Made by a program: the position numbers and the translations under genes
The notes under the pieces: generated by a model
The model's input: only the letters and a program-made list of their open reading frames with translations
Told to the model about the DNA's origin: nothing
Database searches by the model: none
NCBI RefSeq assembly: GCF_044647545.1
Contig: NZ_CP172818.1
Strand: one strand, 5' to 3'
Length of the DNA stretch: 64,000 bases
Source of the DNA: Escherichia coli
GTDB lineage: Bacteria > Pseudomonadota > Gammaproteobacteria > Enterobacterales > Enterobacteriaceae
In this document: piece by piece, positions 24,988-64,000 of the stretch
How positions within the stretch are numbered: the first letter of the stretch is position 1
Layout of the letters: each line of letters opens with the position of its first letter

Positions 24988-25118
24988 ACTACCCCCTGTT
25001 GATTTGAACAGGGATTATGTCAGGATGAGGGCGCTTTCGCCAGTTGAAGTGGTGACGGCGACCTCACATTGTGGCAGTCTTTGCAGCACGAAAATGGAAG
25101 TATAATGAGGACAAAATG

Positions 25119-56843: not shown

Positions 56844-57074
56844 ATGCTGAAGAATCTGGCTAAACTGGATCAAACAGAAATGGATAAAGTGAATGTCGAT
56901 TTGGCGGCGGCAGGGGTTGCATTTAAAGAACGCTACAATATGCCGGTGATCGCTGAAGCGGTTGAACGTGAACAGCCTGAACATTTGCGCAGCTGGTTTC
57001 GCGAGCGGCTTATCGCCCACCGTTTGGCTTCAGTCAATCTGTCACGTTTACCTTACGAGCCCAAACTTAAATAA
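56844..57074 (+). CDS. holE: DNA polymerase III theta subunit
   Basis: 76 aa from the Met at 56844 ([24 protein letters not shown]...) after GAGGAG SD. Confidence 0.9.
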
Positions 57075-57175: not shown

Positions 57176-57832
57176 ATGTCGTTCTGGAAAGTTGCAGCAG
57201 CGCAATATGAGCCTCGTAAAACCTCACTCACCGAACAGGTAGCTCATCATCTGGAGTTTGTGAGGGCCGCCGCCAGGCAACAATGTCAGCTGTTAGTTTT
57301 TCCATCGCTTTCTTTACTGGGGTGTGATTATTCGCGACGTGCCCTTCCTGCCCCACCCGATCTCTCGCTATTAGACCCGCTGTGTTAAGCTGCAACGACC
57401 TGGCGAATGACTATCATTGCCGGTCTTCCCGTTGAATATAACGATCGCTTTATTCGTGGAATTGCGGTGTTCGCACCGTGGCGAAAAACGCCAGGGATCT
57501 ACCATCAGAGTCATGGTGCATGTCTGGGCCGTCGTTCCAGAACCATCACGGTGGTCGATGAACAACCGGAAGGTATGGATATGGACCCGACCTGTTCACT
57601 GTTTACGACAGGGCAATGTCTGGGAGAACCCGACCTGCTGGCTTCGGCCCGTCGCTTACAATTTTTTTCACATCAGTACTCGATTGCTGTGCTGATGGCA
57701 AATGCCCGTGGTAACAGTGCACTATGGGATGAACATGGTCGTCTCATCGTTCGCGCCGATCGTGGTTCATTATTGTTAGTCGGTCAGCGTTCATCACAGG
57801 GTTGGCAAGGCGATATCATTCCATTACGCTAG
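57176..57832 (+). pseudogene. yobB: C-N hydrolase-family gene yobB interrupted by an in-frame TAA at 57386-57388
   Basis: ORFs 57176..57388 and 57407..57832 share one frame; the span is exactly 219 codons, matching the 218-aa length remembered for K-12 YobB; a single stop (..LLDPLC*AATTWRMTIIAG..) breaks it. Confidence 0.55.
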
Positions 57833-57855: not shown

Positions 57856-60602
<2,747 letters not shown>

Positions 60603-60783
60603 TTATAAGGGTGGCAAAACTCACCGGGGATGCAAGCGAAACAGGGTAGTCATTGCTTAGATGATGACAGGTAATGGCGCGGATATCGACTGTTATGCAG
60701 ACAGAGAAAATCAGCCTGTTCAAATGGCTGTGCGGTTCTGGATAACCCGAAATAGTCAACTTCAGGCTATCCAGAGAGCGGAA

Positions 60784-61443
60784 TTACTCCGCCAAAGTAC
60801 GTTTTTGCTGTTCGAGATCGCGTTCAATGCCTTCACGAACGTCCTGGGGGATTTTCAGCGCATCACCCAGTGCATTCAGGTAACTGCGTTCCATAAAATG
60901 GTCAATATCAATAGCCGCGCAGCTCAGGAAATAGATTTCCAGCGCCTCTTCTTCATTGCGAACCCCGGTAGCCAGACGTTGTGGATCCAGCGGTTGTTCG
61001 ATTGCCTGCTCAATGAGTACACGCCCCTGCTCTTCCACGCCGGCTTCACGCAATTGCTGGTCGATTGCCGCACGTTCTCTGGCATCAATATGACCATCAC
61101 TTTTAGCGGCAAAGACCAGCGCAAGGATCAAACGTTCCGTACGCTCATCCAGCGGCGTACTTTGCGCGCCAAACTGCGGTTCGTCCTGATGCGCCGCGCG
61201 AATTTTATCTTTGTATTTATTCCACAGCACCGTACCCGCTACCGCTCCGCCGCCAACCAGTAACGCGTTGGTGCCATATTTCGTAAGAAGTTTACGTGCT
61301 GATTTATTTGCGACCAGCAGCCCAGCCAGTCCGCCTAATGCGCCTGGCACTAAAAGTTTGCCCAATCCCTGATCCGCAGACGAGGAGACAGAAGAACTGC
61401 TTTGCCCAAGCAGGGATTGCAGTTGATTTAACCAGTTAGCCAT
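60784..61443 (-). CDS. yebE: DUF533 inner-membrane protein YebE
   Basis: 219-aa ORF. Confidence 0.85.
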
Positions 61444-61657
61444 ATTTGCTCCTCAATAGCCATTTTTAGTGCCTGTAGCATAGCGGATGAGGATGTCAGA
61501 AAATGTATATCGAGACAAAAGATGCGCAAATAAGCGAGTCGGTAGGCCGTTATTCAAAGAAATTCGCGCCAGGTAAGGTGTTTACTGTATATCAGGTGAT
61601 AAGGGTATTTTAGGTGAAAGTAGTTTGACGTTTTGAGTGGCACTGTTTGATGCTGAT

Positions 61658-61746
61658 TGCCCGATGCGACGCTGTTGCGTCTTCTCAGGCCTACGATTGT
61701 GGTGTGTTGTGGGCGGACAAGGCACTCGCGCCGCATCCGCCGACGG
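61658..61746. repeat. Pair of inverted REP elements (BIME-like) in the yebE-yebF intergenic region
   Basis: 61658-61694 reads TGCCCGATGCGACGCTGTTGCGTCTTCTCAGGCCTAC (REP-like); 61711-61746 is a second REP-like copy in inverse orientation. Confidence 0.5.
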
Positions 61747-61768
61747 TCAATCGAATTATCAGAAGCCA

Positions 61769-62173
<405 letters not shown>

Positions 62174-62191
62174 TCAGGAGCGCAAGTTGCT

Positions 62192-62482
62192 TCAGGCCGC
62201 GTGTGAGGCATCTTCCTCTTCGGATTCAGCACCGACGACCTGTGGGGACGGTAATTTGCCGGTTTTCAGAATGGTGCTCAGCACATCTTTTTGTTCTGCC
62301 AGCCATAGCGAAAGGGCTTCACGTTGCTCGTCTTCCATTTGCACTGGAGAATTTGTCAGCCAGGTGTCAAGCAGATCCGCCGTATCAAGCATTTTGTCAT
62401 AAGCATCGGCTTCCTTTTTGCTGGTAAACGACATTTTCTCTTCGCCCTCACGAATGACTACGTATTTAACTTCAACCGCCAT
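62192..62482 (-). CDS. yebG: DNA damage-inducible protein YebG
   Basis: 96-aa ORF with a LexA box directly upstream. Confidence 0.85.
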   Translation of the reverse strand: MAVEVKYVVIREGEEKMSFTSKKEADAYDKMLDTADLLDTWLTNSPVQMEDEQREALSLWLAEQKDVLSTILKTGKLPSPQVVGAESEEEDASHAA

Positions 62483-62500
62483 TTGCAGCCTCTCATAATA

Positions 62501-62519
62501 ACTGTGATTTTATACAGTA
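62501..62519 (-). promoter_or_regulatory. LexA (SOS) box upstream of yebG
   Basis: ACTGTGATTTTATACAGTA fits CTGT-N8-ACAG, 20-40 bp upstream of the yebG start. Confidence 0.6.
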
Positions 62520-62615
62520 TATTTCTTCTAGGTTGGGAAATCAACATCAACAATAAAGACACGCGCAAACGTTTTCGTTTATACTGCGCGCGGAATTAAT
62601 CAGGGGATATTCGTT

Positions 62616-63794
62616 ATGACGTTATTAGGCACTGCGCTGCGTCCGGCAGCAACTCGCGTGATGTTATTAGGCTCCGGTGAACTGGGTAAAGAAGTGGCAA
62701 TCGAGTGTCAGCGTCTCGGCGTAGAGGTGATTGCCGTCGATCGCTATGCCGACGCGCCAGCTATGCATGTCGCGCATCGCTCCCATGTCATTAATATGCT
62801 TGATGGTGATGCATTACGCCGTGTGGTTGAACTGGAAAAACCACATTATATCGTGCCGGAGATCGAAGCTATTGCCACCGATATGCTGATCCAACTTGAA
62901 GAGGAAGGACTGAATGTTGTCCCCTGCGCGCGCGCAACGAAATTAACGATGAATCGCGAGGGTATCCGTCGCCTGGCGGCAGAAGATCTGCAGCTGCCCA
63001 CTTCCACTTATCGTTTTGCCGATAACGAAAACCTTTTCCGCGAGGCGGTTGCTGACATCGGCTATCCCTGCATTGTTAAACCGGTGATGAGTTCCTCCGG
63101 CAAGGGGCAGACGTTTATTCGTTCTGCAGAGCAACTTGCTCATGCATGGGAGTACGCTCAGCAAGGCGGTCGCGCCGGAGCGGGCCGCGTAATTGTTGAA
63201 GGCGTCGTTAAGTTTGATTTCGAAATTACCCTGCTAACCGTCAGCGCGGTGGATGGCGTCCATTTCTGTGCACCGGTAGGTCATCGCCAGGAAGATGGCG
63301 ACTATCGTGAATCCTGGCAACCACAACAAATGAGCCCGCTTGCCCTTGAACGTGCGCAGGAGATTGCCCGTAAAGTGGTGCTGGCACTGGGCGGTTATGG
63401 TCTGTTTGGTGTCGAGCTGTTTGTCTGTGGTGATGAGGTGATTTTCAGTGAGGTCTCCCCTCGCCCACATGATACCGGGATGGTGACGTTAATTTCTCAG
63501 GATCTCTCGGAGTTTGCCCTGCATGTGCGAGCCTTTCTCGGACTTCCGGTTGGCGGGATCCGTCAGTATGGTCCTGCAGCTTCTGCCGTTATTCTGCCAC
63601 AACTGACCAGTCAGAATGTCACGTTTGATAATGTGCAGAATGCCGTAGGCGCAGATTTACAGATTCGTTTATTTGGTAAGCCGGAAATTGATGGCAGCCG
63701 TCGTCTGGGGGTAGCACTGGCTACTGCAGAGAGTGTTGTTGACGCCATTGAACGCGCGAAGCACGCCGCCGGACAGGTAAAAGTACAGGGTTAA
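62616..63794 (+). CDS. purT: Formate-dependent GAR transformylase (ATP-grasp)
   Basis: 392-aa ORF beginning [27 protein letters not shown]. Confidence 0.95.
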
Positions 63795-63815
63795 ACCCGG
63801 CAAAAAAACGCTACA

Positions 63816-63846
63816 AAAATGCCCGATCCTCGATCGGGCATTTTGA
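63816..63846. terminator. Bidirectional terminator between convergent purT and eda
   Basis: GCCCGATCCTCGATCGGGC hairpin flanked by an A run upstream and TTTT downstream. Confidence 0.55.
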
Positions 63847-63850
63847 CTTT

Positions 63851-64000
63851 TACAGCTTAGCGCCTTCTACAGCTTCACGCGCCAGCTTAGTAATGCGGTC
63901 GTAATCGCCCGCTTCCAGCGCATCTGCCGGAACCAGCCAGGAACCACCGATGCACAGCACGCTTTTCAGCGCCAGGTAGTCACGGTAGTTAGCCGGAGAA
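63851..64000 (-). CDS. eda: KHG/KDPG aldolase Eda, C-terminal fragment (5' end outside window)
   Basis: Minus-strand frame open to the window edge, ending ...[18 protein letters not shown] before stop at 63851-63853. Confidence 0.8.

Follow-up and report, generated by a model that had tools for sequence, protein, structure and literature searches.

Does the palindrome just upstream of yebG in the Escherichia coli chromosome serve as a LexA operator, and which of the surrounding genes does it govern? The DNA analysed here (the window) is a 64-kb stretch of the E. coli chromosome. Several complete genomes match its segment 61700-62700 at 100% identity, and of 5426 complete E. coli genomes 5425 contain this segment; 40-mers sampled from 52700 to the end of the window follow the same order in strain FDAARGOS_497. 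The original prediction placed a CTGT-N8-ACAG SOS box at 62501-62519, just upstream of yebG. Our analysis leaves very little doubt that the 20-mer at 62500-62519 serves the yebG promoter as its LexA operator, presumably occluding it when bound and allowing induction after DNA damage, with read-through to yebF and, more weakly, yebE; none of the results spoke against this reading. We computed the operator's presence, score and position, how deeply it is conserved, and the absence of terminators. LexA dependence and damage induction were taken from the literature, whereas the exact promoter hexamers and the occlusion step are predicted.

The operator reads AACTGTGATTTTATACAGTA on the + strand and TACTGTATAAAATCACAGTT in the sense of yebG (62519-62500, - strand). 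A pattern scan of the 64-kb window returned the CTGT-N8-ACAG core match at 62502-62517, and both operator triplets (CTG/CAG, 62516-62518 and 62503-62505) are intact. The stretch first proposed, ACTGTGATTTTATACAGTA, does occupy 62501-62519 on the + strand, and a 17-nt gap separates the operator from the downstream yebG ATG (62482). Compared with the consensus TACTG(TA)5CAGTA, 15 of the 20 operator bases agree, giving an imperfect palindrome with a CTG-N10-CAG core. The 25-mer at 62497-62521 of the window, TATACTGTATAAAATCACAGTTATT, is identical to the K-12 yebG SOS box (PMC3009722 Tables 4 and 7), and alignment with an MG1655 derivative showed zero differences across the operator. This is the already known LexA binding site of E. 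coli yebG, identical to the published K-12 box and not new; since the yebG operator has been in SOS regulon lists from the late 1990s onwards, it has little value or importance as a discovery. The original prediction does demonstrate that a true regulatory site can be recognised from sequence alone. The features of the locus are collected in Table 1.

Table 1 Features of the yebG locus, with positions in the window and the basis of each assignment.
Feature	Coordinates	Strand	Basis
holE	56844-57074	+	annotation
yobB	57176-57832	+	annotation
exoX	57856-58518	+	annotation
ptrB	58515-60575	-	annotation
yebE	60784-61443	-	annotation; Pfam DUF533
REP-like G+C-rich hairpin pair without U-tract, between yebF and yebE	61659-61741	-	RNA fold
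yebF, 118 aa	61769-62125	-	annotation; Pfam PF13995
yebG, 96 aa, first gene under the operator	62192-62482	-	ORF; annotation; Pfam PF07130, E = 4e-34
Shine-Dalgarno-like GAGAGG, 6 nt upstream of the yebG ATG	62489-62494	-	sequence; A/GGAGG-like block conserved in alignment
LexA operator (SOS box) of yebG	62500-62519	-	pattern; PWM; K-12 identity; orthologous boxes
Predicted -10 hexamer TATACT of the yebG promoter	62516-62521	-	consensus scan and conservation; inferred
Predicted -35 hexamer TTGATT, 17-nt spacer to the -10	62539-62544	-	consensus scan, 9/12 matches; inferred
purT	62616-63794	+	ORF; annotation

To score the operator independently of itself, we used a symmetrised leave-one-out position weight matrix (PWM) made from the E. 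coli LexA boxes of PMC3009722 Table 4, which number 17 once the yebG box is left out. The score obtained is high (20.2 bits, the training sites ranging from 13 to 28 bits) and constitutes the top match in 64 kb, 8 bits ahead of the runner-up at 12.3 bits. The exact P value is 9e-8 per position, corresponding to 0.006 expected matches in 64 kb and approximately 0.4 in a 4.6-Mb genome, and one of 200 block-shuffled windows attained the operator score (maximum 20.24 vs 20.18 bits). The leave-one-out heterology index (HI) of the operator is 5.2, with all other window positions at 11.3 or above; the published yebG value of 6.3 (Courcelle values quoted in PMC11228462) lies below the cut-off of 15 for a LexA-repressed gene (PMC11002266). 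The bare CTGT-N8-ACAG pattern is not enriched in the window (2 seen vs 0.66 expected, with two or more in 10 of 100 shuffles); this count is uninformative alone and was therefore replaced by the leave-one-out PWM and the exact P value. With its CTG-N10-CAG core and A/T-rich spacer, the yebG operator resembles those of recA, sulA, umuDC, uvrB and dinD, and like them it overlaps or adjoins the core promoter and is relieved of repression by RecA-stimulated LexA cleavage. Its strength is intermediate, at 20 bits vs 25-28 bits for umuD, sbmC and recN.

The only other CTGT-N8-ACAG match in the window is found at 24996-25011 (box 24994-25013), in the yoaA-yoaB intergenic region. It precedes by 24 nt the GTG start codon (24987, - strand) of yoaA, which encodes a helicase of the DinG family. 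The box reads CTG-TTCAAATCAA-CAG, exactly the LexA box of Sutera et al. 2021 (PMC8378479), which was validated in that study through CCC/GGG mutagenesis and lexA3. Each of the two pattern matches in the window is thus a LexA operator already in the literature. The two boxes are alike in lying directly upstream of a damage-inducible gene, but the yoaA match is far weaker (7.35 bits; published HI of 13, PMC11228462), has G/C-rich flanks and adjoins the ribosome-binding site.

The yebG SOS box is listed in PMC3009722 and PMC11228462 and originates from Lomba et al. 1997, Fernandez de Henestrosa et al. 2000 and Courcelle et al. 2001. LexA binding at yebG is taken from the literature, through secondary citations of these three studies and of Wade 2005, together with the Sort-Seq LexA site and the ChIP-chip and gel-shift papers cited in PMC6003448. 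Published data bear out the predicted LexA control and its induction by DNA damage. AZT induces yebG 4.4-fold with a lexA dependence of 9.7-fold (PMC11228462), mitomycin C induces it in the Sort-Seq dissection of the yebG-purT region (PMC6003448), and under UV a single tiling-array transcript, 'yebG, yebF', was detected (PMC3009722). The yebG gene carries the annotation 'DNA damage-inducible protein YebG' in the E. coli RefSeq records that are 100% identical over 61700-62700. The arrangement in Salmonella enterica is similar, with a single box 17 nt from the ATG, 41-fold induction of yebG by nalidixic acid and co-induction of yebF and yebE by read-through (PMC8072944). Our PWM scan of Salmonella enterica subsp. 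arizonae also placed the yebG box at 17 nt, with a different spacer (TACTGTATATAAATACAGTT). The Salmonella yebG alleles have HI values of 7.03 and 4.98 (PMC8072944) vs the 6.3 published for E. coli.

To place the operator relative to the promoter, a consensus scan was carried out and gave one promoter-like site on the yebG strand, TTGATT-17-TATACT. The last four bases of TATACT are also the first four of the LexA box. Across 81 aligned upstream regions, conservation of TATACTGT is 90% or higher, and this includes the two bases outside the 20-mer box. The most conserved non-coding block of the upstream alignment, TATACTGTAT...ACAGT, takes in the two bases that complete TATACT, and TTGA at the -35 spacing is moderately conserved across genera. 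Sort-Seq of the yebG-purT intergenic region (Belliveau et al. 2018, PMC6003448) describes adjoining LexA and RNAP sites for yebG, with the RNAP site 9 bp downstream of the older computational annotation. The hexamers that we assign to the yebG promoter are predicted from the consensus and from conservation, and their placement may differ from the Sort-Seq RNAP site. A LexA dimer on 62500-62519 would cover the -10 end and the transcription start region, and RNA polymerase could not then initiate at yebG because both are covered. Such a layout is typical of occlusion. Upon DNA damage, RecA filaments would trigger LexA self-cleavage, the operator would be vacated and yebG would be transcribed.

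To determine how widely this arrangement is kept, we analysed the yebG loci of 80 species representatives of the Enterobacterales, with YebG identity down to 55% and genera including Escherichia, Citrobacter, Salmonella, Kosakonia, Phytobacter, Klebsiella, Raoultella, Cedecea, Erwinia, Pantoea, Serratia, Yersinia and others. In 79 of the 80, the best PWM match within 150 nt upstream of yebG scored 16.9-29 bits and lay 14-38 nt from the ATG, and in all 80 the yebG upstream box outscored the rest of the locus (about 3.1 kb, median best 6.4 bits). The 79 boxes comprise 39 distinct 20-mers, all of which retain CTG at positions 3-5 and CAG at positions 16-18 (invariant in 79/79), and their spacers are variable yet A/T-rich. 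Invariant CTG and CAG around a freely varying spacer is the signature of LexA contact rather than of drift or an RNA stem. A divergent purT neighbour is found in 59 of the 80 loci, and the box is kept in 20 of the 21 loci without purT as well as in genera without yebF downstream. Because it persists where either neighbour is absent, the box goes with yebG rather than with the genes around it. This cross-genus footprint (79/80 species) places LexA control of yebG among the most stable features of the locus, ahead of its gene neighbours in stability.

Two of the sampled loci stand out individually. Yersinia nurmii CIP110231T is the sole species of the 80 without a full box and retains the right half-site only (TCGCGGATATTAATACAGTT, 9.4 bits), approximately 26 nt upstream of yebG. 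Pantoea sp. BAV 3049 has a 16.4-bit LexA-like match outside the yebG upstream region, the only strong off-target match among the 80 loci (3.2 kb), which may be the SOS box of a neighbouring gene.

Four other explanations of the palindrome were weighed against a LexA operator of yebG. It could be an accidental resemblance to a loose consensus, arising in A/T-rich intergenic DNA and with no regulatory role, as the recurrence of two or more bare pattern matches in 10 of 100 shuffles and the single shuffled window reaching about 20.2 bits would allow; this is vanishingly improbable given the exact P value, the identity with a published, experimentally supported operator, and the retention of position and CTG/CAG in 79 of 80 species while the remaining intergenic region diverges. 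On the conservation data, a chance origin is effectively refuted already. The inverted repeat could also act in RNA rather than as a DNA operator, forming a hairpin at the start of the yebG mRNA that influences its stability or translation. A start about 7 nt after TATACT would indeed transcribe part of the repeat, and a 5-bp stem is possible within the 20-mer. However, the stem is predicted to be weak (-3.4 kcal/mol, with a loop of 8 nt), transcription starting within the box would cut it short, the arms are invariant without covariation, as expected for protein contact, and no Rfam family was matched in 60500-64000, so that we regard an RNA role as extremely improbable.

Another regulator, CRP, might share the sequence or be its main user, with LexA as one of several inputs. 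In favour of this, TGTGA, a CRP half-site, is present at 62503-62507 (+ strand), and the stringent response is reported to raise yebG. Stationary-phase expression of yebG dependent on cAMP and H-NS was reportedly described by Oh and Kim in 1999. Nevertheless, the partner half-site at N6 spacing has only 2 of the 5 bases of TCACA, and TGTGA depends on a G at 62506 that most orthologous boxes lack (box position 14 reads T in 58 of the 79), so that selection acts on the LexA pattern rather than on a CRP site. The Sort-Seq features reported for yebG are also LexA and RNAP only (PMC6003448), and use of the site by CRP is accordingly judged unlikely. Still less probable is a bidirectional operator that also puts the divergent purT under SOS control. 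Divergent genes sharing a box do exist, for example ssb/uvrA (PMC8072944), and only 97 nt separate the box from the purT start codon. Yet 36 bp lie between the box and the purT -35-like hexamer downstream of it, which places the box beyond the polymerase footprint, and the box is kept, as noted, in nearly all loci that lack purT. In addition, purT is not in the published SOS gene lists examined (including PMC8072944 and PMC11228462), and its Sort-Seq features (PMC6003448) are RNAP and PurR only and are described as directional.

With the palindrome read as the LexA operator of yebG, the extent of the transcript under its control can be considered. yebG and yebF lie on the same strand with a 66-nt gap in which a terminator scan and RNA folding found no hairpin with a U-run, and zero intrinsic terminators were found on the - strand from the yebG start to the yebE start. 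Since no terminator follows yebG, the transcript would continue into yebF and then, more weakly, past the REP-like hairpins into yebE. The suggestion that yebF might belong to the LexA-controlled transcript is strengthened by this terminator-free gap, by the UV tiling-array transcript described above and by mutant data, in which lexA(Def) and lexA3(Ind-) strains showed that control by LexA is full for yebF and partial for yebE (PMC3009722). Equally, yebG and yebF rise together in ciprofloxacin time courses (PMC11002266). The segment 61650-61775 folds at -45.3 kcal/mol without a T-run, an inverted-repeat search of 61440-62200 with 9-nt seeds found none, and an Rfam scan of 60500-64000 gave zero matches. 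The REP-like hairpin pair is likely to be a partial barrier before yebE, a role that fits both the published partial LexA dependence of yebE and the read-through in Salmonella (PMC8072944).

The first codons of yebE contain the third-best PWM match of the window (61418-61437, AACTGGTTAAATCAACTGCA, 12.2 bits), which is probably not a LexA site because CTG...CTG replaces CTG...CAG. Read-through explains the partial LexA dependence of yebE better than this match does. Of the 80 loci, 59 have yebF after yebG in the same orientation; Klebsiella, Raoultella, Erwinia and Pantoea have no yebF within 1.5 kb of yebG, and in Yersinia and Serratia about 450-550 nt separate yebF from the yebG stop. The pairing of yebG with yebF is therefore lineage-specific, unlike that of the box with yebG.

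A proposed association of the SOS unit with exoX and holE, said to be next to it, did not hold. The two genes are 4.0 and 5.4 kb away on the other strand, beyond yebF, yebE and ptrB, and no LexA-like site near either was present among the 12 best PWM matches in the window (all those of at least 7 bits). The link was rejected on the grounds of the intervening genes and the lack of a LexA-like site nearby; given also the distance and strand, the exoX/holE neighbourhood has no evident regulatory meaning.

Operator alleles were then compared within E. coli. The exact 41-mer around the operator is present in 4232 of 5426 complete genomes (about 78%), a near match is found in 230 more, and some 960 contain neither. 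Strain F1 E4 carries the box TACTGTATATAATCACAGTT, an A10T spacer allele closer to consensus, and the box of SCPM-O-B-8794, the GTDB E. coli representative, is TACTGTATAAAAATACAGTT, which scores 26.0 bits vs 20.2 in the window. A BLAST search with a 43-mer containing the SCPM-O-B-8794 type of allele was matchless against complete E. coli genomes, through either absence or low-complexity masking of the query. In strain MS 21-1 (NZ_CP146670.1, 3048868-3049177), ISEc53, an insertion element of the ISL3 family, interrupts the yebG box after TACTGTATAAAATC and cuts yebG off from its promoter and half of the operator. We tentatively consider that in E. coli lineages natural operator variation might adjust the SOS control of yebG or abolish it, although we think this somewhat doubtful. 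In Salmonella, swapping a single box SNP changes yebG expression and the fraction of YebG-ON cells (PMC8072944), and it is because of this SNP effect that E. coli box alleles might matter; they could set different basal YebG-ON fractions in the same way. Were such allelic tuning true, it would still not make the operator a new one.

Beyond the operator, a promoter-like site for purT, AAGACA-18-TATACT, occupies 62556-62585, with a PurR box (GCGCAAACGTTTTCGT, 62563-62578) inside its spacer. This site matches the simple-repression architecture of the Sort-Seq report (PMC6003448), and its core is conserved where purT is upstream. K-12 and the window share the operator and the purT, yebF and yebE neighbours but differ at a few other intergenic positions, among them the first base of the PurR box (62563: A in K-12, G in the window) and the -35/-10 spacer. 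YebG itself is a tightly SOS-controlled and widely conserved protein whose biochemical function is still unassigned. Its reading frame contains an in-frame Met17 (codon 17, 62432-62434, - strand), the residue at which a shorter YebG proteoform starts according to Ribo-RET and HiBiT data from Salmonella and E. coli (PMC11005335).
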